A DNA stretch of 64,000 nucleotides from Methanobrevibacter sp. (GTDB taxonomy: Archaea > Methanobacteriota > Methanobacteria > Methanobacteriales > Methanobacteriaceae), in assembly GCA_016838945.1 (NCBI GenBank), contig JADLKP010000001.1, positions 1,608 through 65,607 of the forward strand. Reading direction: 5' to 3'. Within the stretch, counting starts at the first letter, position 1. Each line of letters starts with the position of its first letter. Shown piece by piece: positions 4,766 through 32,463 of this stretch. Position numbers and translations under genes: made by a program. The notes beneath the pieces were generated by a model, which did not search any database, was not told the DNA's origin, and saw nothing but the letters and a program-made list of their open reading frames with translations.

Positions 4766-4923
4766 ATTATTTGTTGGCTATTGTAGTTGATGTTTAATTT
4801 ATGCCTTTGATTTAGATTATTTGTTGGCTATATGCTTAATATTTAATTTAAACGCTATTGACCAAAATATTTATTAACGGATTACTAAATTAAAAAATAC
4901 AAACAAAAGGCCTTTTAGGTGAT

Positions 4924-6024
4924 ATGATGATTAATCTTGTTTATATCGGTTCTGATATAGGAGATATTACTGTAAATGCATTCAATGCAATAACAGAGTC
5001 TGACATTGTACTCAATTATGATAATATTGACTTGAGTATACTGGATGAATATTTGAAGGATAAAGAGATTATTTCAAACGTCGTTGAGGATAGTGAAGAC
5101 GGAGACATCTACTCTAAACTTGAGGAATCATATTCAAAGATAGAATATTGCGTCTACAAGTCAAGAGAGGATAAGACAGTCACAATCGTTTCCTCAAACA
5201 ATCCGAATATCTACACTGTAGCCAATGTCCTGATTCAAATCAGCTCAAAGCACAATGACATTGAGCTTAGGGTCTATCCTGGAGTCAGTCCTGTAGACTA
5301 TTCAGCATCCTTGTTAGGCGCTCCATTGAATGACTATGCAGCCATTGACCTAAACAGCATAATCGTATCCCAAGAGGAACTTGAAGGCAAGATCAAATCT
5401 GCTTTGGAGAATGATTTCGTCCTCTTTATCCATAATCTTAAAGGAATCTATGGTGAAGACGAGAATCATAACTTCAATTTATTGAAAAAAATCGTGAACG
5501 ATTTCAACAATGAGCTATTGGTTGGAATCGTGAATGGCGAATCACATGAAATCTGCAGATTCAAGGACATCAATGATGAGAAGATAAATGAAAAGACAAC
5601 TCTAATCATTGGAAACAGATTGACACATATCCTTGATGACTTTATGGTCACCTCATCCGACTATATTGTCAAGCCGAAATTCATTGAACAGAATATGGAC
5701 TTCTTTAAAAGATACCTTAAGGGCGAAACCCCTAGAGGCCTTGATATGGATTGCGATTATCTCCCATGCCATAAGGAATTGGAGGCATGCGATTTCTGCT
5801 ATTGTCCTTTCTATCCATGTGCAGATGGCGTCACTGGAGGAGAATGGATCAAGGAGAAGAACGTTTGGAGCTGCCAGTTCTGTGATTGGATTCATTTGGA
5901 AGAGCCATGTCTTGCAGTCAGGGAAGGGCTTGATGAAATCCTTGAGGAAACTGAAGATTTAAAGACCAAACATATAGAATTGTTGAAATTAAGACGCCAA
6001 AGTCTTTTGAAGACTTTAAAATAG
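4924..6024 (+). CDS. cbiH: CbiH/CobJ-like tetrapyrrole methyltransferase fused to a Cys-rich (zf-like) domain; active-site motifs degenerate
   Basis: PGVS..SASLLGAPLND motif; C-terminal CDYLPCH..CDFCYCPFYPC..WSCQFCDWIH. Confidence 0.7.
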   Translation: MMINLVYIGSDIGDITVNAFNAITESDIVLNYDNIDLSILDEYLKDKEIISNVVEDSEDGDIYSKLEESYSKIEYCVYKSREDKTVTIVSSNNPNIYTVANVLIQISSKHNDIELRVYPGVSPVDYSASLLGAPLNDYAAIDLNSIIVSQEELEGKIKSALENDFVLFIHNLKGIYGEDENHNFNLLKKIVNDFNNELLVGIVNGESHEICRFKDINDEKINEKTTLIIGNRLTHILDDFMVTSSDYIVKPKFIEQNMDFFKRYLKGETPRGLDMDCDYLPCHKELEACDFCYCPFYPCADGVTGGEWIKEKNVWSCQFCDWIHLEEPCLAVREGLDEILEETEDLKTKHIELLKLRRQSLLKTLK

Positions 6025-6116
6025 CTATTGACTTGTTAAAAATGCGTAAATAGGGTAAATAGGTTTAATTTATCATTACTTATTTATTACATATTAAAAT
6101 TGAAGAAGGATTTAAA

Positions 6117-6731
6117 ATGCCGAGTGTAAAAGATATTTTAATTGAAATGAAAGATATGTCGGAATTAATGGTCGATTTAGCATATTCTGCTGTATTGTTC
6201 AACAACAAGGCTGCAGCAGAAGAAGTGTTGACCCTTGAAAATAGACTCAACAGCATGAACTATGAAATAAAGAAACAGTCTCTTGTAGCTGCACGTTCAC
6301 TTGAAGATGCTGAAAAGTTGACAACCTTGCTTGAGATTGCAGAAGCTGCTGAATCTATGGGTAATGCTGCAAAGGATTTGGCTGACTTGACCCTTAAGGG
6401 ATTCGAACCGCACCCAGTATTCAAGATGGTTATGGAGGAATCCGAAAAGAACATCATTCGTTTGAATGTTGAAGAAAGTTCAGTTTTAGCAAACCATTCT
6501 TTAGGAGAGCTATTGTTGCTTAACCGTACTGGTATGAGAATCATTTCAATAAGACGTGGTGATTCCTGGATTTATGGTCCTGACAAAAACACTGTGCTCC
6601 TTGTTGGAGACGTTTTGATTGCTAAAGGATCTGAGACCGGAACCGAAATTATTGAAAAGTTAGCAGATGGAGAAATTAATTTAGATGATTTAGGAAATAT
6701 AGATGAAATCATTGACGACGATGACGATTAG
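6117..6731 (+). CDS. PhoU-like + TrkA-C domain potassium transport-associated protein
   Basis: [19 protein letters not shown]-terminus; TrkA-C motif [28 protein letters not shown]. Confidence 0.85.
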
Positions 6732-6922
6732 GTCATTTCAGTCAATTTATTTAAAAAAATTGTGTTTGACTATTTTAATCAGTCAAATTATTGAAATAAT
6801 GCTTTAGAAATAATTTTCAATTAAATTATTTTAAGACAATTTGTTTTTAGAGTTTAAGAGATAGTTTTCAATTAAATTATTTTAGTTTAATATGTATGGA
6901 TGTGACACTATGATGATGGGAG

Positions 6923-18823: not shown

Positions 18824-19317
18824 GTTAATCTCCATTGTTTTTTTATAATTTTATCTTTTGTTTTATTTCTATTTAATGTTAATTAATTATATAATTTTTC
18901 ACGTTAAATGAAATCCAAATATTTTAAAAAAATCATTCACTTTTTATCATGATTGATTTGTATATTTTCATTTTGTTTAATTCACACCATTACAAACAAA
19001 ATTTATATATTGTATATAAATTGTTTAATCATCGATGATATTATATATATTTTTTGATTTTTTATTATAAATCATTATAAATTAACAGTTTCAAATTTCA
19101 TATAGTATAGCACTATATTTTTAAAAAATAAGGCATTAGAGGCCATTTTTTTAGAAACATTTATATACTAGGAAGATAAACTAATAAGTAGTACTTATGA
19201 AAAAAAGCTTGTATAGCTAGTATTTTTAAAAAATATTAGTTTATATAAACTTTCACTAATTATTGCATTAGTAATAAGTATGTATTTTTTAAAATAAAAT
19301 TATGGAGAATGATATTT

Positions 19318-19521
19318 ATGGCAATTCCTGTAGCTCCTATCGGAAGAATCATTAAAGATGCTGGTGCTGAAAGAGTAAGTGAAGACGCTAAAAAAGAATT
19401 AAACGCTTATGTAGAAGCACAAGCTGCAAAAGTTGCTAAAAAAGCTATCAAATTCGCTGAATTAGCAAAACGTAAAACCGTTAAAGCTGAAGACATCGAA
19501 TTAGCTATTAGCGAATTATAG
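19318..19521 (+). CDS. Archaeal histone (HMf family)
   Basis: MAIPVAPIGRIIKDAGAERVSEDA...RKTVKAEDIELA; GGAGA SD. Confidence 0.95.
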   Translation: MAIPVAPIGRIIKDAGAERVSEDAKKELNAYVEAQAAKVAKKAIKFAELAKRKTVKAEDIELAISEL

Positions 19522-19637: not shown

Positions 19638-19862
19638 CTATTTTTTTTGAGCATTTTGCTTTAGTTTGTTTATTTCGTTTTGGTCTAGTTTTGTTATTCT
19701 TTTTATTGTTTCATCGTCGAATCCTTCTTTTATTAGGTTTTCTGCTACTTCGTGTCTGTTTTTTTCTATTCCTTCTTCTATTCCATCTTCATAGTATATC
19801 TTACCTATTCTTCCTAGTATTCCATCGAAATCAATTCACTTTTATCTATCATTTTCATCACT
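19638..19862 (-). pseudogene. Duplicated C-terminal cassette of the adjacent Rpn-like gene, with a 1-nt deletion and an extra EGIE repeat
   Basis: Near-identical to 19885-20073; begins at the AGTGATGAAAATG SD/start; AATCAATTC versus parent AATCCAATTC. Confidence 0.85.
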
Positions 19863-19864
19863 TT

Positions 19865-20725
19865 TTATTTGGAGTGTTGTTGTTTTAGTTTGTTTATTTC
19901 GTTTTGGTCTAGTTTTGTTATTCTTTTTATTGTTTCATCGTCGAATCCTTCTTTTATGAGGTTTTCTGCTACTTCGTGTCTGTTTTTTTCTATTCCATCT
20001 TCATAGTATATCTTACCTATTCTTCCTAGTATTCCATCGAAATCCAATTCACTTTTATCTATCATTTTCATCACTTCCTTATATTCCTCATCATCAGTTA
20101 TGAATTTTTTAGCCAAAAAGGATAGAAGTGCTGCTGTATGCAATCTATCCCTTTCATTCATCTTTGCTTCTTGTGTCAACTCAATGGATTTAATCAGCAA
20201 TTCCTTTGGAGACCTTTTTGATTTCATGAATGTCAGTATTCTCAAATCCCCTATTTCTGATTTAGTGAGCTCTTCGTTGTTCTTATTTTTCAAACTTATA
20301 TTATTTATAGTTTTATCTCCATCAAAGCTCTTAAACGATTTATAAGGTATAGTAAACTCGTTATTATTGTGCCATTTCAATATAACTTGCTTATTATCCT
20401 TATAATGAGTGCTAATGACTAATGTGTGGACTTTTCTTCTATATCTGGTTCTCATATAACAGGCATAATCAAAAAACTTTTCCTTATCTTCCTTTCCTAT
20501 TGCAGTTGAATGGGCCTCTAAGGAGAGTATCTCATCATTATCCAATAGCCCTATAAAATCTGCCCTCCTTTCCTTTCCATCATATGTTATGATCTTGGTA
20601 GGACAGGGTCTCGTTATCCTATATGGAAATTCGAACTTCTCAAGAATGGAATTTATTCCAGGAAATAGAAGGCAAAAGTATTTGTCTTCCACCTTTTTTA
20701 AATCCTTTTTCTTATCGTTTTTCAT
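19865..20725 (-). CDS. Rpn/YhgA-like PD-(D/E)XK nuclease family protein with internal in-frame start at 20065
   Basis: RRADFIG..SLEAHS catalytic-type motif; C-tail EDGIEKNRHEVAENLIKEGFDDETIKRITKL; internal AGGAAGTGAT-GAAA-ATG. Confidence 0.7.
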   Translation of the reverse strand: MKNDKKKDLKKVEDKYFCLLFPGINSILEKFEFPYRITRPCPTKIITYDGKERRADFIGLLDNDEILSLEAHSTAIGKEDKEKFFDYACYMRTRYRRKVHTLVISTHYKDNKQVILKWHNNNEFTIPYKSFKSFDGDKTINNISLKNKNNEELTKSEIGDLRILTFMKSKRSPKELLIKSIELTQEAKMNERDRLHTAALLSFLAKKFITDDEEYKEVMKMIDKSELDFDGILGRIGKIYYEDGIEKNRHEVAENLIKEGFDDETIKRITKLDQNEINKLKQQHSK

Positions 20726-21188: not shown

Positions 21189-22025
21189 TTATCCTGTTAT
21201 TTCTTTTATTTCTTCAGTTTTCATTCCTTTTTCTTTTAGTTTTCTTTCTATAATTTGTATTTTTCTTTCTGTGTTTTCTTTTTCCATTTTTCTTCCTTTT
21301 TCTTCGTATATTTCCTTTATTTGTCGTACAGTGCTTTCAAGTATTCCACCTTCCATTTTCACCAACCTCTCTATTTCTTCAAATTCCTCTATTGTATCTG
21401 TGTATTTGTTTGCTAAAAACATCAATAGGTTTTTTATCTCATTTATTTTATCCTTATTCACTGTGCTTATCCTTGCCAATTTTAAGCATTCAACTATCAA
21501 TTCCTTAGGCTTTTTATCAGATTCCATAAATGGAATCAACAGGAGATGATCAAGCTCTTCAGTTTCATCATCCATCTTTCCCTCATCAATCAAATTCTTC
21601 AGCCTGTCCAATTTTTCCTCTGCATTAAACTCCTTGAAGGTCTTTAATGGAATGGTATATTTATCGTCATTGTGCCATATCTCACCATATTCATCGTTTT
21701 TCTTCTTTTTAGTGCTGATGATGTAGCTGTTTGTTTTCTTGTCATGCTTTATTCTAAGATAGCTTGCATAATCAAGGGAATTAATTATATCCTTTTTGCT
21801 TACATAAGTTGATTTGAATTCAAGATTCAATGTCTCATCATCCAAATCAAAAACCAGATCCATCATCTTGCTTTCGTTCCTGTAGTTTTGATATTCGGTT
21901 GGGAGTATTCCCCTTATCTCTCCAGGTATATCCAGCAACTTCAACAGGCGGTTCAATCCAGGTATGCTTTGCTTGAAATATTTGTCCTCTATATTGTACT
22001 TATCCTCCCTATTTTCTTCTTTCAT
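21189..22025 (-). CDS. Rpn/YhgA-like PD-(D/E)XK nuclease family protein with internal in-frame start at 21356
   Basis: MMDLVF..NLEFKS motif; C-tail KLKEKGMKTEEIKEITG; internal GAGGT-N8-ATG. Confidence 0.7.
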   Translation of the reverse strand: MKEENREDKYNIEDKYFKQSIPGLNRLLKLLDIPGEIRGILPTEYQNYRNESKMMDLVFDLDDETLNLEFKSTYVSKKDIINSLDYASYLRIKHDKKTNSYIISTKKKKNDEYGEIWHNDDKYTIPLKTFKEFNAEEKLDRLKNLIDEGKMDDETEELDHLLLIPFMESDKKPKELIVECLKLARISTVNKDKINEIKNLLMFLANKYTDTIEEFEEIERLVKMEGGILESTVRQIKEIYEEKGRKMEKENTERKIQIIERKLKEKGMKTEEIKEITG

Positions 22026-22841: not shown

Positions 22842-23327
22842 ATGAAATTCAAATATTTGCTATTAAGCTTAATGATATTAATGATCGCTTCCAGCATTGC
22901 AGCCATTGCAGCTGATGAAGCCATCATAGAAGATTTTAAGTTTACGGTGCCTGACAATTTCACCATTGTAAACAGCACCGAGCATTTTGTCTCTTTGGCA
23001 GTTGATGATGAGCATTCCATCTACTTGTCTGTTCCAGATGATGCAATGACAGCCGACCAGTTCAAGGCAAACCTTGAAAAGGAAGGATACAAATTTGACA
23101 ACGAATCAATGGCAAACTTCACAAGCGGCAATTTCAATATAGATGCAATCAATCTCACCCAAGGAAACTCCAAAGGAGTTCTCTATGTTTGCGATGATGT
23201 TGTAGATGTGGATGAGGATGATGATCTGTTTATTGTTTATCTATATCCGGCCAATGAAGGAAACATTGATCCTTTGAACAATACAGTAACCGACATGATT
23301 GGCAATATTGTAAATGTGGATGACTGA
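22842..23327 (+). CDS. Secreted acidic protein, paralog 1 of array
   Basis: Signal peptide; DFKFTVPDNF motif. Confidence 0.75.
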   Translation: MKFKYLLLSLMILMIASSIAAIAADEAIIEDFKFTVPDNFTIVNSTEHFVSLAVDDEHSIYLSVPDDAMTADQFKANLEKEGYKFDNESMANFTSGNFNIDAINLTQGNSKGVLYVCDDVVDVDEDDDLFIVYLYPANEGNIDPLNNTVTDMIGNIVNVDD

Positions 23328-23969: not shown

Positions 23970-24419
23970 ATGAGATTTAAATATATTTTTTTAGGGGTTC
24001 TGGTTCTGATTTTGGCAGCTGGCGTTGCAGCTGCTGATGACTATGAATCAGTGGGGGACTATACCTTTGACATTCCGGATGGATATCAAGTTGCAGACAA
24101 GGATGACGTTTCAGTTGGAATGGAATTGGATGAAAATCATACGGTTCTTGTTTATCAGCTTGATTCAGATAGGGATATTAGCTTATTCAAGACAATGCTT
24201 GAAACTGCTGGATGCCAGTTCAGTGATGAACAGGACTTGAAAGTAGGCAATTTCAATGTAAGTCAATCCACTTACAAACTTGAAGAGGCTCAAGGATATT
24301 TCTATATTTGCAGTGATGGTGGAAAACATATTGTAGTTGCTGATGGAATGCCTGCAAGTGAAGAACTTCCTGCAGCAGATGATAATCCTACTTATGAAGT
24401 TGTTAGTTCTTTAGAATAA
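23970..24419 (+). CDS. Secreted acidic protein, paralog 2 of array
   Basis: Signal peptide MRFKYIFLGVLVL; DYTFDIPDGY motif. Confidence 0.75.
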   Translation: MRFKYIFLGVLVLILAAGVAAADDYESVGDYTFDIPDGYQVADKDDVSVGMELDENHTVLVYQLDSDRDISLFKTMLETAGCQFSDEQDLKVGNFNVSQSTYKLEEAQGYFYICSDGGKHIVVADGMPASEELPAADDNPTYEVVSSLE

Positions 24420-24475: not shown

Positions 24476-24919
24476 ATGAATAAAAAACTTTTAATTATCA
24501 TTGGATTGATATTAATCTTATTTTATAGTATCTTAACTATTTCGGCTGCTAATTATAGCAATCCAGATTATAATTTGAATATTCCAGATGGTTACCATAG
24601 AGTTAATCAATCTGATAACTTTGTTCTGCTTCAGAGTGATAAATATCATAGCATTTCCATTTCCACTTTAGATGGCAGTACAGATAAGGATCTTTTGAAG
24701 TACCTGCTTGAAAGGTCAATGTATGATTTTACTTATTCTACCAATTACACTAAGGGAAGCTATGATGTAGAGGAGAACTATTATAATCAGGAGTATCAAA
24801 GTGGTATTCTGTATTTATGTGATAATGGTCAGGAGATGATTGTTATAGATTATAATGGTCCTTTAGGTGAAGATTTAGAGGATAGTCCTGTTGGTGTAAT
24901 TTTAGATGTTTTAGATTAA
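24476..24919 (+). CDS. Secreted protein, paralog 3 of array
   Basis: Signal peptide; DYNLNIPDGY motif. Confidence 0.75.
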   Translation: MNKKLLIIIGLILILFYSILTISAANYSNPDYNLNIPDGYHRVNQSDNFVLLQSDKYHSISISTLDGSTDKDLLKYLLERSMYDFTYSTNYTKGSYDVEENYYNQEYQSGILYLCDNGQEMIVIDYNGPLGEDLEDSPVGVILDVLD

Positions 24920-25303
24920 TTTTATTATTTGGTTTTCTGTCAGGTTGGTTGCAGTAGCTATTTCCTTTATGGAAAATTCTTCATCAAGCATTTCATATGC
25001 GCGTTTAAATTGATTTTTCATATATTCCACTTCTTCATCATATTTTTGTTCTATTTCATAATCCAATTCATATATTTCTCTTTTAAGATTAATCATTTCA
25101 ATATATTTCTTTCTTTTTAAATCCATCAGTTTAGCTACTTCATAATCAATCCCTGTTCTAGATGTTACTTTTCGTGGGGGGTGAAAGTCTATATCAAATT
25201 CTGCATTTGAGTATTTATTATGAATTTCTCCTTCTTCATTAAATAATATTGATTCTAATGATTTTTTTTTAGTTTCATTTCCTTCTTCACACATTTTAAT
25301 CAC
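24911..25303 (-). CDS. Hypothetical protein ending in an Rpn-like C-terminal tail
   Basis: AYEMLDEEFSIKEIATATNLTENQIIKL resembles the Rpn tails in this window; ATG at 25294 after AGTGAT is the likelier start. Confidence 0.6.
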   Translation of the reverse strand: MIKMCEEGNETKKKSLESILFNEEGEIHNKYSNAEFDIDFHPPRKVTSRTGIDYEVAKLMDLKRKKYIEMINLKREIYELDYEIEQKYDEEVEYMKNQFKRAYEMLDEEFSIKEIATATNLTENQIIKLI

Positions 25304-25936: not shown

Positions 25937-28900
25937 ATGACTAAAGAGCTAAATAAAATTATATTGGAAGGTGCAGAGACTGCCTTTATTGATGAAAATT
26001 TTGAATCTTCCAACGAGTATAGGCCAAGATTACTTGTTAACAACAATGGCCATAAGGTCTTGAATTCAATTAAGGATGAATTAAAGGATTGTGAAGAGTT
26101 CTTCATCAGCGTTGCATTTATCACTAAAGGGGGACTTACTCCACTATTACAAGATTTGAAGGAACTTGAAAAAAGAGGTATTAAAGGGAAAATAATTACT
26201 ACCGACTATTTATATTTTACCGAACCTGAAGCTTTAAGAAAGCTCAATGATTTAAGCAATATTGAAATAAAAATGTATGAAACCGATGAGACTGACGGTT
26301 TCCATACCAAAGGTTATATTTTTAAAAACAATGGAATTTATAAGGCCATTATAGGCAGTTCCAATCTTACTTTAAATGCTTTGACAATCAATAAGGAATG
26401 GAATATTGGATTTTCATCCCTTTATGATGGGGAAATTCTAAAAAGTCTAATCGATGAATTCAATGATTTATGGGGAAAGTCTTCAAACATTGATGATATC
26501 CTGGTTGAATATGAGAATATTTATAATCATAAAAAGAATTTCAGAGATTTCAATAGAGATTATAAGGAAACAAAAGAGGAAACAGAAGTAGATCTTGTAC
26601 CAAATTCTATGCAAAGAGACTTTTTGGATAATCTAAGAACACTTGTTTTAAATGGAGAAGATAGGGCACTTCTTGTATCAGCTACTGGTACAGGAAAAAC
26701 ATATGCAGCTGCATTTGCAGTTAAGGATTTTGCTCCAAAGAAATTCTTATTTATTGTTCACAGGGAACAGATTTTAAAACAGGCAATTAAGTCATTTAAA
26801 AGAGTATTTAATGGTGAAGATAATAAATTCGGCCTTCTTTCAGGAAATTCAAAGGAATATGATAAGGATTATTTGTTTTCAACTGTACAGACCATGTCTA
26901 AAGAGGATGTCTATACAAAATTTGATATGGATGAATTTGATTTCATTGTCATAGATGAAGTTCATAAGGCAGGAGCTTTAAGTTATAAAAAGCTTTTAAG
27001 CTATTTCAAACCTAAATTCTGGCTTGGAATGACTGCTTCACCTGACAGAACCGATGGTGAAAACATCTATGAATTGTTTGACTATAATGTACCTCTTGAC
27101 ATCAGACTTCAGGATGCTTTGGAAGAGGACTTGTTGTGTCCTTTCCATTACTTTGGAATAAGTGATTTGACAGTTGATGGTGAAGTCTTGGATGATGAAA
27201 GCGATTTCAGATATTTGGTATCAGATGAACGTGTAAAATATTTGCTTGAAAAATCCGAATATTATGGCCATACTGGAGAAAGATGCAAAGCTCTTGTATT
27301 CTGCAGCACTAAAAGAGAAGCAAGAGAATTGGCTGAAGCATTTACACAAAGAGGCCACCCTTCACAGTTTTTAAGTGGTGATGATTCCCAAGAAAAACGT
27401 GAAGAAGCTATTTACAGATTAACAAATGATGATGCAGGAGATCCTATAGAATACATTTTCACCGTAGATATCTTCAATGAAGGAGTAGACATTCCAGAAG
27501 TCAATCAGGTCCTCTTGGTCAGGCCAACCCAATCTTCAATCATTTTCATTCAGCAATTAGGAAGAGGATTGCGCAAATTCAAAAACAAGGAATACGTTGT
27601 CATCATTGACTTTATTGGTAATTACAAGAACAATTTCCTGATTCCTATTGCCTTATCAGGTGACAGAACCTATGATAAGGATAATATTCGCAGATATTTG
27701 ATGGAAGGATCAAAGGTAATTCCAGGTCAATCTTCAATCAGTTTTGATGAAATATCCAAAAAGAGAATCTATAAAGCTATTGACAATACAACCTTTTCTA
27801 GAATTGCATTGTTCAAGGAAAAATATCAAAATCTTAAATTCAGACTTGGTAGAATCCCATACCTTTGTGATTTCTATGAAAATGGAGAATTCAATCCGGA
27901 ATTAATTTTAAATCATAGTCAATATGATTCCTACCATAATTTCTTAAATAAAATTGATGACAGCTATGAAGAATCAATCGATGATGTAGACAATCTTTCG
28001 TTAAAATTCATCTCATCCAAAATCATTAAGGGAATAAGGCCACATGAGGCGGTTATTTTAAGATATTTAAGATATAATAAGTATTTCACCATTCAAGCTA
28101 TTGAAAACTTTTTGCATGAAGAATATGGACTTGAAAATCAATTTGAATCCATTAAAGGAGCTATTAATTTATTAAGCTTGAATTTCTATAAGAAGGAAAG
28201 CACTCAAAATAGAGACAGCCAAACCACTTTGATTGAAACCAAGGACAAAGTAAGTTTTGAGGATTACCAAGCAAACACTGTATCTAGTGCTATTGGAAAA
28301 ATAGACGGTTTTGATTATGAAAACATTTTCTTTAATTTAGATATTAGTTTAGATAGTTTAGAAAACAATAAAGATCATAAATTTGTTATTTCTGATTACT
28401 TTAGAAAGGCCCTAACCAATAGTACTTACTTAAAACACTTTGAAGACGCTATAGAGTATACTCTACTCAAATATGATTCTGTCTATAGAGTCGAAGATGA
28501 TGAATTTAAGAGATATGCTAAATATTCAAGAGAAGATGTTTTAAAACTCTTGAATTGGAAATTCTTTATGAACGGCCAGAATATTGGTGGATATAAGATA
28601 AAATATAATACCTGCCCTATTTTTGTAACCTATGATAAAAAAGAGGATATTTCTGAAACAATTAATTATGAAGATGAATTCGATTCAAGAGACATATTCA
28701 GTTGGATGAGTAGGAATAATCGTAGGGTAGAAAGTAATGAGCTTAAACCGCTTGTCAATTACACTGATTTGGATGTACGCTTATTCATTAAAAAGAGTGA
28801 TGATGAGGGGCTTGACTTTTATTATATTGGAAAATTAAGTCCTTTGGGAGAACCTATACAGCTTTATAGAACTATTGATGGCAGGGAAAATCCTATTGTT

Positions 28901-28978
28901 AACTTTAAGTTTAAAATAGATCATACAGTTGATGAGAATCTATATAATTATTTCATGGATAAACTGGATGAGGAATAG
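25937..28978 (+). CDS. PLD nuclease-SF2 helicase-DUF3427 protein (SauUSI-like type IV restriction enzyme)
   Basis: HTKGY..GSSNLT (HKD-type), SATGTGKT, DEVH, GMTASP and QQLGRGLR motifs; C-terminal NGQNIGGYK/FSWMSR region. Confidence 0.85.
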   Translation: MTKELNKIILEGAETAFIDENFESSNEYRPRLLVNNNGHKVLNSIKDELKDCEEFFISVAFITKGGLTPLLQDLKELEKRGIKGKIITTDYLYFTEPEALRKLNDLSNIEIKMYETDETDGFHTKGYIFKNNGIYKAIIGSSNLTLNALTINKEWNIGFSSLYDGEILKSLIDEFNDLWGKSSNIDDILVEYENIYNHKKNFRDFNRDYKETKEETEVDLVPNSMQRDFLDNLRTLVLNGEDRALLVSATGTGKTYAAAFAVKDFAPKKFLFIVHREQILKQAIKSFKRVFNGEDNKFGLLSGNSKEYDKDYLFSTVQTMSKEDVYTKFDMDEFDFIVIDEVHKAGALSYKKLLSYFKPKFWLGMTASPDRTDGENIYELFDYNVPLDIRLQDALEEDLLCPFHYFGISDLTVDGEVLDDESDFRYLVSDERVKYLLEKSEYYGHTGERCKALVFCSTKREARELAEAFTQRGHPSQFLSGDDSQEKREEAIYRLTNDDAGDPIEYIFTVDIFNEGVDIPEVNQVLLVRPTQSSIIFIQQLGRGLRKFKNKEYVVIIDFIGNYKNNFLIPIALSGDRTYDKDNIRRYLMEGSKVIPGQSSISFDEISKKRIYKAIDNTTFSRIALFKEKYQNLKFRLGRIPYLCDFYENGEFNPELILNHSQYDSYHNFLNKIDDSYEESIDDVDNLSLKFISSKIIKGIRPHEAVILRYLRYNKYFTIQAIENFLHEEYGLENQFESIKGAINLLSLNFYKKESTQNRDSQTTLIETKDKVSFEDYQANTVSSAIGKIDGFDYENIFFNLDISLDSLENNKDHKFVISDYFRKALTNSTYLKHFEDAIEYTLLKYDSVYRVEDDEFKRYAKYSREDVLKLLNWKFFMNGQNIGGYKIKYNTCPIFVTYDKKEDISETINYEDEFDSRDIFSWMSRNNRRVESNELKPLVNYTDLDVRLFIKKSDDEGLDFYYIGKLSPLGEPIQLYRTIDGRENPIVNFKFKIDHTVDENLYNYFMDKLDEE

Positions 28979-29737: not shown

Positions 29738-29926
29738 TCAATTCATTTCAAGCTGATTGAATATTTTTTCCATATGAGCAATTGCATCGGAGACTTCCTT
29801 TTGACTTATGTCTAAAGAAAGGCCATAATCTGCTTTTTTTCTAAGTGCAGTAAATCTTTTCAGTTCTTCTGTGTAGATCTTTTTGGGTTCTTCCATTTCA
29901 ATTTTAAATTCATCTATTTTTCTCAT
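29738..29926 (-). pseudogene. Shortened paralog of 32013..32297
   Basis: MRKIDEFKIEMEEPKKIYTEELKRFT versus MQKIDRFRMRMETQKEMYTEELKKFT; near-identical promoter. Confidence 0.65.
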
Positions 29927-29930
29927 GCTT

Positions 29931-30078
29931 CCTCCATTTGTTTTTAAAAATACTTTGTATATGGTATTATATAAAGCTTATCTAAAATTTAAGGTCAATA
30001 TTCTTGCTATACTGTAAAATTAAAGTTATATGGTAAAATTAGGGGAGAAAATTTATGTATAGTTTTATATGGTAAACT
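29931..30078. repeat. ~150-bp direct repeat, copy 1 (copy 2 at 32306-32463)
   Basis: Near-identical stretch TACTTTGTATATGGTATTATATAAAGCTTATCTAAAATTTAAGGTCAATATTCTTG. Confidence 0.9.
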
Positions 30079-30418
30079 TGTTTACAAAATTAAAAATTAG
30101 TGGTGATTTTTATCTCTTTTTTTACCGACCAAACTTTTTAAGAAAGCTTGACTCAAATTCATCATTTTCCACCTTCATAAACATCAATCCTATCCAAATT
30201 TTTCAGCTATTTTTTCATTGAAAAACTCACATATTTTAATTGAATTTCATTAGCTTTTTTTCTTTTTGCAAAATTATTATAATTTTATAATCAAATTAAA
30301 ATATTGTATGAACTTCAAATATTAAAATAAGACTGTAAAATTCTAATTAGATTAAACTGACTAATTTAAATACTAGTTTTTACAAATTAAGATTACTTAC
30401 AAATTTAGAGGAGGTGAT

Positions 30419-31384
30419 ATGATATCTAAGCCGGTTTATGATAAGAATTTCAAGAACATTTTTGACATGTATCCTCAGGGAATCCTTGATATCATTCATC
30501 AGGTGATTTCAGATAACTGGTCTGAACTGATTAGGGAAAACTGCCCGCCAGAGATTCGGGAAAAATTCGGCAGGGACATTCTGGAAAGCGATTCCATACA
30601 GATATCATGCGGCGAAGATTTTCGTTTGCACTTTAAGGAAAAGCTTCCGAATGAATTGAATCTAAAAAACGGCATGAGGTTCATTGCTGATGTGCCTTTT
30701 GATACAGATGAGGGTCTGATATTGAATCTTGAGTTTCACTCATCAAAGATAGATTTCGAACAGAGATCAAAGTTTAATGTATATCAGGCGGTATTGCATA
30801 ATGTGCATGGCAAATATGTTTTTACAGTTGTTTTTAGCATGGATAACGACAAGCATGAGATTATTCATCATAAAATCAATCAATTTGATGGGTTTACAAT
30901 GTTTATCATATCGTTAAAGGCTCTAAACAAAAAACAAACTTTAAATAACTGTTCAAATAAAATATCAAACAATATTATAATGTCAGATAAGGAAAAGGCC
31001 CTCTTTCTAATGTGTCCGGCAATGGATGATGGGAATAGGGTTGAGACATTAAAGGAAACCATTCGGCTTACGCAATTGATTGAGACAATAGGCATTCAGG
31101 AGAAAAGGGATATGCTAATGATTTTGTTTAACTTTGCGGATGAATGGTTTGATGGGAATGATTTTAATGAAATAGGAGGTAATGAGATGGTGGTTGAGTT
31201 GACTGAATCTGCTAAGAAGCGTTTGGAGAAGATGGCTATAAAAAGCATAAAAGAGGAAGGTAGGTTGGAAGATAGGATTGATATTATTTCAAGTATTCTT
31301 TCCAAGGGTCTTTCTTTTGAGGAGGTTTCTAGGCTTACTGGTGTAAGTGTTGATGAGATTTCTGATATTGCTAATGGAAAGTGA
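30419..31384 (+). CDS. Rpn/YhgA-like PD-(D/E)XK nuclease family protein with internal in-frame start at 31187
   Basis: YDKNFK N-terminus, FIADVPF..NLEFHS motif; internal AGGAGGT-AATGAG-ATG. Confidence 0.75.
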   Translation: MISKPVYDKNFKNIFDMYPQGILDIIHQVISDNWSELIRENCPPEIREKFGRDILESDSIQISCGEDFRLHFKEKLPNELNLKNGMRFIADVPFDTDEGLILNLEFHSSKIDFEQRSKFNVYQAVLHNVHGKYVFTVVFSMDNDKHEIIHHKINQFDGFTMFIISLKALNKKQTLNNCSNKISNNIIMSDKEKALFLMCPAMDDGNRVETLKETIRLTQLIETIGIQEKRDMLMILFNFADEWFDGNDFNEIGGNEMVVELTESAKKRLEKMAIKSIKEEGRLEDRIDIISSILSKGLSFEEVSRLTGVSVDEISDIANGK

Positions 31385-31418
31385 TTATTTTGGATTTTGA
31401 GTTATTGGAGGTAATGAG

Positions 31419-31652
31419 ATGGTGGTTGAGTTGACTGAATCTGCTAAGAAGCGTTTGGAGAAGATGGCTATAAAAAGCATAAAAGAGGAAGGCCGATTGG
31501 AAGGTAAGTTGGAAGGTAAGTTGGAAGGTAGGTTGGAAGATAGGATTGATATTATTTCAAGTATTCTTTCCAATGGTCTTTCTTTTGAGGAGGTTTCTAG
31601 GCTTACTGGTGTGAGTGTTGATGAGATTTCTGATATTGCAAATGGAAAGTGA
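31419..31652 (+). CDS. Stand-alone copy of the Rpn C-terminal domain (RpnS-like, 77 aa)
   Basis: GGAGGT-AATGAG-ATG; nearly identical to 31187-31384 plus a 36-nt EG(R/K)L expansion. Confidence 0.85.
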   Translation: MVVELTESAKKRLEKMAIKSIKEEGRLEGKLEGKLEGRLEDRIDIISSILSNGLSFEEVSRLTGVSVDEISDIANGK

Positions 31653-31683
31653 ATTGGATTTAAAGTGGATTGGAGGTAATGGG

Positions 31684-31860
31684 ATGGTGGTTTTGACCCC
31701 TGAGGCTAAAAAGCTTAAAGAAGGACTATTTAATCAAGGAATTGAGAAAAGTTTCATAGCTATTGATATGATTAAAAAAGGGGCTGATTTAGAGGAAGTA
31801 TCTAAAGCCACTGGCTTGACTAAAATTCAAATTAATCAGTTATGCACATTAATATTATAA
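31684..31860 (+). CDS. Divergent RpnS-like cassette (58 aa)
   Basis: GGAGGT-AATGGG-ATG; MVVLTPEAKKLKEGLFNQGIEK..MIKKGADLEEVSKATGLTKIQI. Confidence 0.75.
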   Translation: MVVLTPEAKKLKEGLFNQGIEKSFIAIDMIKKGADLEEVSKATGLTKIQINQLCTLIL

Positions 31861-31863
31861 TGA

Positions 31864-32005
31864 TTTTGTAAAAAAATAAGCAAAATTAGTGGAGAAATTT
31901 ATATGTAGTTTTATATGGTAAACTTGTTTATAAAAATTAAGTTGGCATGATTTTATTTTCTTCTACTAGCAAATTATTTAAAAGAGTTTGATCAAATTCA
32001 TTCAA
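31864..32005. repeat. Dispersed element copy; degenerate direct repeat of 30020-30165
   Basis: AAAATTAGTGGAGAAATTTAT..AGTTTTATATGGTAAACTTGTT..TTGATCAAATTCAT. Confidence 0.7.
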
Positions 32006-32012
32006 TCACCTC

Positions 32013-32297
32013 TTAAAAAAAGATAAATGCATTTTCGCTGAATTCATCGATTCCATTGTCCTCTGAGAATTTTATCATATGATTATATATTTCATCGCGT
32101 GTGGAATTTAGAATCTCTTTGCTGGTTCCATTCAGATTATTGAAATGATAGATATAATCTACAGTATCAATGTCTCGCTCTTCCATTATGACAAAATCAC
32201 CTAAAAAATCATATTTTTCAGTGAATTTTTTTAATTCTTCTGTGTACATTTCTTTCTGTGTTTCCATTCTCATTCTGAATCTATCGATTTTTTGCAA
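32013..32297 (-). CDS. Small acidic hypothetical protein
   Basis: GGAGGTGA SD + TTG start; paralog at 29738. Confidence 0.75.
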   Translation of the reverse strand: MQKIDRFRMRMETQKEMYTEELKKFTEKYDFLGDFVIMEERDIDTVDYIYHFNNLNGTSKEILNSTRDEIYNHMIKFSEDNGIDEFSENAFIFF

Positions 32298-32305
32298 TTA
32301 TTTCA

Positions 32306-32463
32306 CCTCCATTTATTTTTAAAATACTTTGTATATGGTATTATATAAAGCTTATCTAAAATTTAAGGTCAATATTCTTGTCATACTGTAAAATTATAGT
32401 TATATGGTAAAAAATAAGCAAAATTAGAGGAGAAATTTATGTATAGTTTTATATAGTAAACTA
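32306..32463. repeat. ~150-bp direct repeat, copy 2
   Basis: Matches 29931-30078. Confidence 0.9.

Follow-up and report, generated by a model that had tools for sequence, protein, structure and literature searches.

Why is a gene of a methanogenic archaeon followed directly by two further versions of its own 3' end, each with a start signal? The question is raised by positions 30408-31860 of a 64,000-nt stretch of Methanobrevibacter sp. DNA (GenBank assembly GCA_016838945.1, contig JADLKP010000001.1, positions 1,608 to 65,607 of the forward strand), called the window below. The locus holds a long open reading frame (ORF), an in-frame internal start signal within it and two free tail cassettes behind it. 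In the Rpn genes, which are toxin-antitoxin defence systems, a small protein made from an internal start (RpnS) binds and blocks the nuclease RpnL (Zhong et al., 2023, PNAS, PMC10400941). The locus is probably an archaeal Rpn L/S system, in which a PD-(D/E)xK endonuclease would be the toxin, its separately made tail the antitoxin, and the cassettes downstream copies of the RpnSs type.

The long gene, its internal start signal and the cassettes

The features of the locus are listed here in window coordinates.

30408-30418, forward strand: Shine-Dalgarno (SD) sequence of the long gene, GAGGAGGTGAT, read from the sequence and abutting the ATG
30419-31384, forward strand: RpnL-like long ORF of 321 aa, with an N-terminal YDKNFK motif, a putative PD-(D/E)xK core, a helical linker and a C-terminal tail
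30440-30442, forward strand: codon of D8, upstream of the nuclease core
30596-30913, forward strand: predicted PD-(D/E)xK nuclease core, aa ~60-165
30689-30691, 30731-30733 and 30737-30739, forward strand: codons of the key core residues D91, E105 and H107
31174-31189, forward strand: internal initiation signal, with AGGAGGT (31174-31180), 6 nt and an in-frame ATG (31187-31189) that encodes M257
31187-31384, forward strand: intragenic RpnS-like ORF of 65 aa, with the same stop as the long gene, one EGRL (31256-31267) and a class-A helix-turn-helix (HTH)-like end
31392-31652, forward strand: free cassette 1, with a spacer, GGAGGT (31407-31412), ATG at 31419 and ORF 31419-31652 (77 aa)
31657-31860, forward strand: free cassette 2, with a spacer, GGAGGT (31672-31677), ATG at 31684 and ORF 31684-31860 (58 aa)

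The SD of the long gene was the strongest among 33 long-ORF starts in the window. It is complementary to the 3' end of the Methanobacteriales 16S rRNA, which itself lies outside the window. The internal SD, the 65-aa ORF and both cassettes had been described in a first-pass annotation made from the letters of the sequence, and all were found again at the same coordinates. The cassettes each open with the same start signal, GGAGGTAATG(A/G)GATGGTGGTT, and the block common to the intragenic tail and both cassettes is TGGAGGTAATG(A/G)GATGGTGGTT. A weaker similarity continues for about 15 nt beyond this start block on its upstream side (78-81% over 36 nt). The duplication boundary had been placed on the SD by the first-pass annotation; it does lie near the SD, but the unit starts roughly 15-25 nt upstream and not exactly on it. 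The tandem periods are 232 and 265 nt, the GGAGGT of cassette 1 beginning 22 nt past the stop of the long gene and that of cassette 2 19 nt past cassette 1. GGAGGT-N4-8-ATG occurs five times on both strands of the 64-kb window, three of them at the locus; 1.3 were expected from shuffles.

The two cassettes differ in their relation to the parent gene. Cassette 1 and the intragenic tail share 93-98% identity; besides the repeats, only about three substitutions set the cassette apart from its parent. The cassette contains EGRL-EGKL-EGKL-EGRL at 31488-31535, i.e. 36 extra nt or three added 12-nt units compared with the single intragenic EGRL; Tandem Repeats Finder gave a period of 12 and 3.6 copies. 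Cassette 2 is without repeats and divergent: BLASTP against the intragenic tail aligned the HTH part only, with 33% identity. It was recognized by a hidden Markov model (HMM) of the tail (E 1e-23), and its HTH-like end is of class B, the majority type in the family.

An assembly artefact can be set aside as the source of the array: a second assembly (L020, GCA_016839045.1) differed by 1 nt in 6,966, and Logan contigs of five independent DNA runs (X1, X3, X4, X5 and X6) crossed the junctions between main gene, cassette 1 and cassette 2. Two variants in these runs were discarded. One X6 contig showed 12 nt deleted at 31261 when aligned at 85% stringency, but no longer at 90%; the deletion was attributed to a paralogue and not counted. 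A joint between 30074 and 32316 in X1, which would mean that a 2.2-kb segment is absent, has a 26-nt flank inside a repeated element and was not used.

The archaeal host assumed in the first-pass annotation was borne out. The window has a G+C content of 31%, and the translation of ORF 19309-19521 was read as an archaeal-type histone. All 23 close homologues of the long protein and all genome matches came from Methanobrevibacter isolates or metagenome-assembled genomes, and a more distant cluster corresponds to the RefSeq entry 'hypothetical protein [Methanobrevibacter ruminantium]'. Because of the origin of the close homologues and the histone ORF, the host is taken to be a Methanobrevibacter-type methanogen.

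The internal start signal is conserved. M257 was kept in at least 90% of the 23 homologues, with Gly-Gly before it. GGAGGT-N6-ATG was present in 11 of the 16 sequences examined (family long genes and free cassettes), and the other five had GGAGAT, AGAGGT or GGAGGA, even where the peptide changes (to RG or GD). Gly253 was encoded by GGA in 12 of 12 sequences and Gly254 by GGT in 11 of 12, with mixed codons at some other conserved glycines. The conserved SD and ATG support a signal at the nucleotide level, short of proof. Internal translation of the tail is thereby suggested by the signal and by the bacterial precedent.

Kinship with the Rpn nucleases and their tails

A profile of the family and of two paralogues in the window was searched against 1.84 billion representative proteins, which gave 1,258 relatives. 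Since the narrow profile of 23 sequences aligned with the tail of RpnA only (E 4.6e-4), a wider one was needed; 97 distant full-length relatives were aligned and compared with the Escherichia coli proteins by hhalign. This profile matched RpnA with a probability of 92.4% (E 5.3e-7, 254 aligned columns; profile columns 21-297, RpnA residues 5-288) and RpnE end to end with a probability of 95.6% (E 1.1e-8). TIGR01784 was matched by 47 of the 97 relatives at E < 1e-3. Residues D8, D91, E105 and H107 of the window protein align with D11, D63, E82 and Q84 of RpnA, each of whose mutations abolishes all RpnA phenotypes (Kingston et al., 2017, PMC5350276). All family members share D91 and E105. Position 107 varies: mostly Q, it is H in the window protein and K in the paralogue encoded at 21189-22025. 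The family thus shares with RpnA an N-terminal (H/Y)D..FK and a D...E-x-Q-S at equivalent positions as well as the full-length profile alignment. It differs from RpnA in that identity is only about 12-16% over the alignment, the curated HMM thresholds are missed and the archaeal family is known from sequence alone.

The AlphaFold2 (AF2) model of the long protein (predicted local distance difference test, pLDDT, 80.5) has a mixed beta-sheet core. Its top PDB matches in Foldseek were McrC, R.BspD6I, Cas4-like ACE1, NucS, Card1 and Can2, all PD-(D/E)xK nucleases, a result that is consistent with the nuclease assignment and not decisive. Membership of the locus protein in the Rpn (YhgA-like, COG5464/TIGR01784) family, as a Methanobrevibacter representative, is well supported by these comparisons.

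The family profile matched the sequence of the RpnA-S crystal structure (PDB 7TH0; E 2.2e-4), and the C-terminus of TIGR01784 was matched by cassette 1 (E 7e-7). The first-pass annotation had proposed an Rpn-like nuclease with an RpnS-type C-terminal tail, and the profile alignments to RpnA and RpnE, 7TH0 and TIGR01784 agree with it. Pfam gave only weak HTH and Trp_repressor matches on the intragenic tail. In the AF2 model of cassette 1 (pLDDT 69), a long helix (7-51) is followed by two short helices, which is the topology of RpnA-S (PMC10400941). Superposition on 7TH0 gave a template-modelling (TM) score of 0.64 and a root-mean-square deviation of 1.6 Å over 38 columns, values that are not significant alone.

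Rpn tails share a long first helix with a hypervariable number of 4-aa repeats (PMC10400941). Variable repeats had been noticed at the locus, and they were confirmed: near-identical tails hold one, two and four EGxL units in the intragenic tail, P0129 and cassette 1, respectively. Tails of the whole family have 0-6 units of the KGIE/EGxx type. The family therefore resembles RpnA-S in its long helix, its HTH-like end and its hypervariable 4-aa repeats, the KGIE type being the same in both.

A profile of 15 tails retrieved 314 proteins. Many of these were small, came from bacteria and bore the label 'TIGR01784 family' or 'Rpn family ... partial'; they had PF27070, some together with PF12784. The profile retrieves hundreds of stand-alone RpnS-like genes. 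Bacterial genes of this sort (DUF4351/PF14261, or PF27070 only) encode small proteins of 50-130 aa homologous to the Rpn C-terminus, as the cassettes do. Unlike them, the cassettes form a tandem array right behind the parent gene, and neither cassette nor the intragenic tail matched PF14261 (DUF4351) at E up to 1.

The closest described counterpart is rpnE-ypaA. Stand-alone RpnSs copies lie downstream of rpnE (ypaA, or rpnESs) and of rpnC (rpnCSs); they have independent origins, are translated, and can be lost through fusion with the N-terminal part (PMC10400941). The E. coli K-12 rpnE-ypaA sequence was read directly: the start of ypaA falls precisely on the internal SD, AAAGGAGAGATTAATG, and compared with its parent the copy is longer by one 12-nt unit (KLEG). 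Both loci have an in-frame internal tail start and a stand-alone tail copy a few nucleotides past the stop, and in both the copy begins at the internal SD (AAAGGAGAGATTAATG in E. coli, GGAGGTAATGAGATG here). Both copies have gained 12-nt repeats, one of the KLEG type in E. coli and three EGxL here, and the type of repeat corresponds as well. The methanogen locus differs in having two tandem cassettes instead of one, the second from a heterologous tail class, in its archaeal host, in the H that replaces Q in E-x-Q and in a nuclease domain that curated models do not see. RpnE itself is annotated as inactive.

Every architectural element of the locus has a described bacterial counterpart, and it is a known system extended to archaea rather than a new kind of system. 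The first-pass annotation knew of no description in archaea. Stand-alone tail copies are already on record in rpnESs and rpnCSs, and COG5464 has been reported in two archaeal phyla (PMC10400941); a commentary on Zhong et al. (2023) also mentions 'some archaeal genomes'. What is new is modest: a methanogen family annotated merely as 'hypothetical', a two-cassette array with one heterologous member, and head/tail mosaicism. The gene-within-gene Rpn design, with its internal start and 4-aa repeat code, is thereby extended to gut and rumen methanogenic archaea; the locus is the first methanogen case to be worked out, and comparison adds evidence that tails are shuffled.

Part of this evidence comes from paralogues. 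Three Rpn-like paralogues lie within one stretch of 12 kb; the other two, ~10 kb upstream of the locus, are much more divergent.

19641-19860, reverse strand: degenerate free tail copy of paralogue 2, starting at AAGTGATGAAAATG and with one extra 12-nt repeat
19865-20725, reverse strand: paralogue 2, 286 aa, motif LSLEAHS (head HMM E 5e-16, tail HMM E 2e-5)
21189-22025, reverse strand: paralogue 3, 278 aa, with a canonical E-x-K (LNLEFKS; head HMM E 8e-8)

In the tail of paralogue 2, an SD-like GGAAGTGAT stands ahead of internal ATGs, and its free copy matched the TIGR01784 C-terminus at 19641-19835 in the downstream frame (E 2.7e-6). The tail of paralogue 3 is shortened by a stop within the HTH part. 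In all three recurrences (the locus, paralogue 2 and rpnE-ypaA), the copied part opens with the internal start signal and has gained 12-nt repeats. Together with the mosaicism described below, they suggest a general way in which Rpn tails arise and are shuffled; the origin and shuffling of these tails was explicitly raised and left open by Zhong et al. (PMC10400941).

Heads and tails of the family have different closest relatives. The window head is closest to that of P0002 (71%). P0009 and P0010 match the HTH part of the window tail at 86% identity but the window head at only 50% and 43%, respectively; in the proteins with the closest heads, identity in the tail HTH part is only ~20%. P0009 and P0010 carry one common tail on different heads. 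The tail closest to cassette 2 is that of P0015 (67%), a protein that shares only 49% with the window head. An array of another make-up was found on a related metagenomic contig, L025: a class-A tail, a free cassette at GGAGGT-N6-TTG that joins a class-A first helix to a class-B end, and a third fragment made of ~60 nt from the end of a head and a further mosaic tail. Because head and tail identities disagree, and because of the L025 mosaics, tails and even half-tails have been exchanged between paralogues. The 'swappable tails' of the first-pass annotation are thereby backed.

The annotation had also argued that a boundary on the SD implies a translated unit. This remains suggestive at the locus, but boundaries elsewhere are not always at the SD: they lie ~60 nt upstream in the third fragment of L025 and at least 180 nt upstream in L024. 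Genome and metagenome scans added only 11 loci, so that the boundary survey is small. P0176 (L024) was considered as a third free cassette and rejected; a scaffold gap and a partial head lie upstream of it, and it was attributed to a partial second paralogue or a scaffolding artefact.

Proposed working of the locus and its rivals

The following course of events is proposed. By sequence and homology, the 321-aa RpnL-like form combines an Rpn nuclease core (D8, D91, E105, H107) with the long-helix, HTH-like tail. Ribosomes may also initiate at the internal AGGAGGT-N6-ATG, a signal plainly seen, and make the 65-aa RpnS-like tail alone. By analogy with RpnA, RpnB and RpnC of E. coli, the short form would block the nuclease by attaching, via the long first helix, to the long form's own identical tail. 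On the same model, the nuclease would be freed upon infection by a virus or another mobile element, and specificity would depend on how many 4-aa repeats the first helix contains. Comparison shows the cassettes to be RpnSs-type copies like ypaA. The unit that was duplicated in tandem or recombined on the spot to produce them starts just upstream of the internal signal; because it starts there, each cassette keeps its own SD and ATG. Cassette 1, with four repeats against one, and cassette 2, of a heterologous class, probably fail to neutralise the resident long form. A single-repeat mismatch abolishes neutralisation by RpnS in E. coli (PMC10400941), and under this rule cassette 1 is probably no spare antitoxin for the one-repeat resident toxin. 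Both would most likely be stored or left-over alternative tails; by recombining homologously with the long gene at its 3' end, they could be swapped in and alter the specificity allele. A toxin-antitoxin and defence function of the locus is proposed from the E. coli precedent; the defence context of the family includes Type IV restriction enzyme, TIR-domain and DUF2326-set neighbours as well as the three paralogues in the window. The natural array of one, four and zero repeats lends itself well to testing the rule that repeat number sets specificity.

Several observations weigh against this reading. Single-sequence scans with Pfam, NCBIfam and PADLOC found no nuclease domain in the long protein, the paralogues or the cassettes; the only matches, to HTH models and to the C-terminus of TIGR01784, fell below threshold. 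For the long protein there was no Pfam PD-(D/E)xK match. PF04754 and PF12784 were matched neither by the window protein nor by its close homologues or the 97 distant relatives. TIGR01784 scored 14.5 bits on the long protein and 29.3 bits on cassette 1, both below the curated cutoff of 52.1, and PADLOC 2.0.0 detected no Rpn at the locus. The Foldseek matches have weak E-values (>=0.018) and TM-scores of about 0.2, with no full-length Rpn structure among them. Position 107 is H, not Q, and RpnA Q84K is inactive (PMC5350276); because of this H, nuclease activity of the window protein is not to be assumed. Invariance of synonymous codons is not unique to the internal SD, since some other columns are equally invariant. 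Runs X3, X4 and X6 have an extra G after 31779 (GGGGG, with GGGG in the window, L020 and X1), which would cut cassette 2 after 33 residues (...MIKKGG); decay would account for it, or else a homopolymer of varying length. In the free copy of paralogue 2, a 1-nt deletion shifts the frame after 14 codons. Free cassettes occur in about two of the 13 distinct family loci with downstream sequence, and therefore selection for them is doubtful. The 15 RNA runs of the same species label were without the locus, the strains lacking it, and the four that were aligned gave no coverage of the genes.

The strongest rival concerns the cassettes and leaves the long gene free to be an Rpn L/S gene. It holds that they are decaying, non-functional debris of unequal crossing-over, slippage or tail replacement, neither antitoxin nor reservoir, and that such events resolve at SD-ATG-GTGGTT, the sole nucleotide stretch conserved between the tail classes. 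Broken sequences speak for it: the extra G in cassette 2 and the deletion in the copy of paralogue 2, the truncated tail of paralogue 3 and the broken tail of P0004. So do the rarity of free cassettes in the family and the boundaries in L024 and in the third fragment of L025, which are off the SD, while cassette 1, so little changed from its parent, is too recent to reveal selection. Decay alone sits less easily with two cassettes that are intact ORFs in the window strain behind a perfect SD at 6 nt, with a cassette in L025 that is still start-competent (GGAGGT-N6-TTG), with an anatomy that arose independently at least three times (the locus, paralogue 2 and rpnE-ypaA) and with an E. coli copy that is translated (PMC10400941). 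We regard the debris explanation as a real possibility, though not as the probable one. With cassette 2 frameshifted in three runs and the free copy of the second paralogue broken, the cassettes may be as much recombination by-products as functional antitoxins.

A second rival would make the cassettes working orphan antitoxins against other Rpn long forms, either genomic paralogues or forms arriving on mobile elements or viruses, and thus a means of cross-immunity or anti-addiction. Neutralisation in E. coli is specific to tail and repeats, so that a different tail implies a different partner. Cassette 2 belongs to the majority tail class, which other paralogues such as P0015 carry, and P0009-like paralogues are present in the same genomes. 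Against such partners, no long form was found with four EGxL repeats or with a tail identical to cassette 2, and cassette 2 is dispensable in sister strains. This explanation is doubtful.

It is unlikely that the cassettes are a working specificity reservoir that switches the toxin tail by recombining with the long gene at its 3' end, a step that the Rpn nuclease itself might promote. If they were, switching would alter repeat number or tail class and with it the antitoxins, viral inhibitors or triggers that the toxin answers to; displaced tails would still be expressed as orphan antitoxins, and the locus would be a case of cassette-switching for a toxin-antitoxin defence gene in archaea. Neisseria pilE/pilS and the shufflons offer an analogy of mechanism only: in these too, partial gene copies adjoin an expressed gene, and the family has mosaic tails. 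Unlike them, the cassettes have start signals of their own, no recombinase or guide sequence was identified, and neither programmed nor frequent switching was seen.

Least likely of all, the internal SD-ATG would be a by-product of a conserved Gly-Gly-x-x-Met peptide, with no small protein made and the tail acting in DNA binding or dimerisation of a nuclease or transposase-like protein that has a single product: GGA and GGT are indeed the two commonest glycine codons of the set (47% and 26%), several other conserved columns are equally codon-invariant and the family was historically annotated as 'putative transposase', but a purine-rich SD remnant is retained where the peptide changes (RG, GD), the signal is kept in all independent free copies, internal initiation at the homologous E. 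coli site has been proven by experiment (PMC10400941) and no terminal inverted repeats flank the gene. A transposon reading was likewise rejected, as no inverted repeats and only imperfect direct copies of an intergenic element bracket the gene; the matches to the ISNCY ('transposase_31') model were negligible (E 0.14-0.18), and the published view is that rpn genes are not transposons (PMC10400941 and commentary).

Neighbouring genes and side observations

Copies of an intergenic element surround the locus.

29942-30078, strand not assigned: left copy of the repeated intergenic element, 29942-30038 being 96% identical to 32316-32412
31871-31924, strand not assigned: middle copy of the 54-nt repeated element, directly past cassette 2
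32316-32462, strand not assigned: right copy of the repeated intergenic element, which brackets the locus with the left copy

Copies of the 54-nt core begin at 30025, 31871 and 32409, and the whole element measures ~100-150 nt. This arrangement suggests that the locus belongs to a unit which was duplicated, or that it entered by recombination between such elements. The outer copies are each located upstream of one of two paralogous small ORFs, 29738-29926 and 32013-32297 (both reverse strand), which have weak HEPN and AbiJ_NTD3 similarity.

The gene at 25937-28978 (forward strand; 1,013 aa; PLD, SF2 helicase and DUF3427) was identified by PADLOC as a Type IV methyl-directed restriction enzyme (E 4.5e-223) and ends 1.4 kb upstream of the Rpn locus. 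The 19-32 kb stretch looks like a defence island. Three tandem paralogous ORFs of ~150 aa (22842-23327, 23970-24419 and 24476-24919, forward strand) lie between the Rpn paralogues and the restriction enzyme. They have signal-peptide-like N-termini and a common motif, 'F.IPD.Y...', and appear to form a family of small secreted proteins or lipoproteins. A 130-aa ORF at 24911-25303 (reverse strand) has a C-terminal end, EFSIKEIATATNLTENQIIKLI, that matched the Rpn-tail HMM (E 1.4e-5) without a nuclease head, and gave weak sigma-70 region 3/4 matches too; it may be a further tail-like orphan or else an HTH protein unrelated to Rpn.

Within the long gene, the segment 30892-30999, encoding FTM(L/F)IISLKALN(Q/K)KQTLNN, is unusually conserved at the nucleotide level among paralogues that are otherwise 45-60% identical. 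Ala168 is GCT in 13 of 13 sequences and Thr174 ACT in 12 of 12, and paralogue contigs from other runs align at ~85%. Gene conversion or a function at the nucleic-acid level is possible.

Elsewhere in the family, the metagenomic contig L023 (1-10021) has three members in a row: a fragment (2-468), a 309-aa protein (4798-5727) and a 280-aa protein with a broken tail (6001-6843). Two TIR-domain (ThsB-like) genes follow directly after them. In L001-L006 (e.g. L003 987-3674), P0009 adjoins an opposite-strand trio of DUF2326/AAA_23, MC6/MC7 and HNH/CTD10 genes, which resembles an ABC-three-component conflict system. Rfam gave no match in the window. Downstream of P0009, at L003 5000-5095, a G+C-rich stretch of ~90 nt (…CCTACAGCCACCTAATTGACC…GTCACCTGCGGCGACAAGGACTTGTAGGC…) stands out in an A+T-rich intergenic region and may be a small structured RNA.

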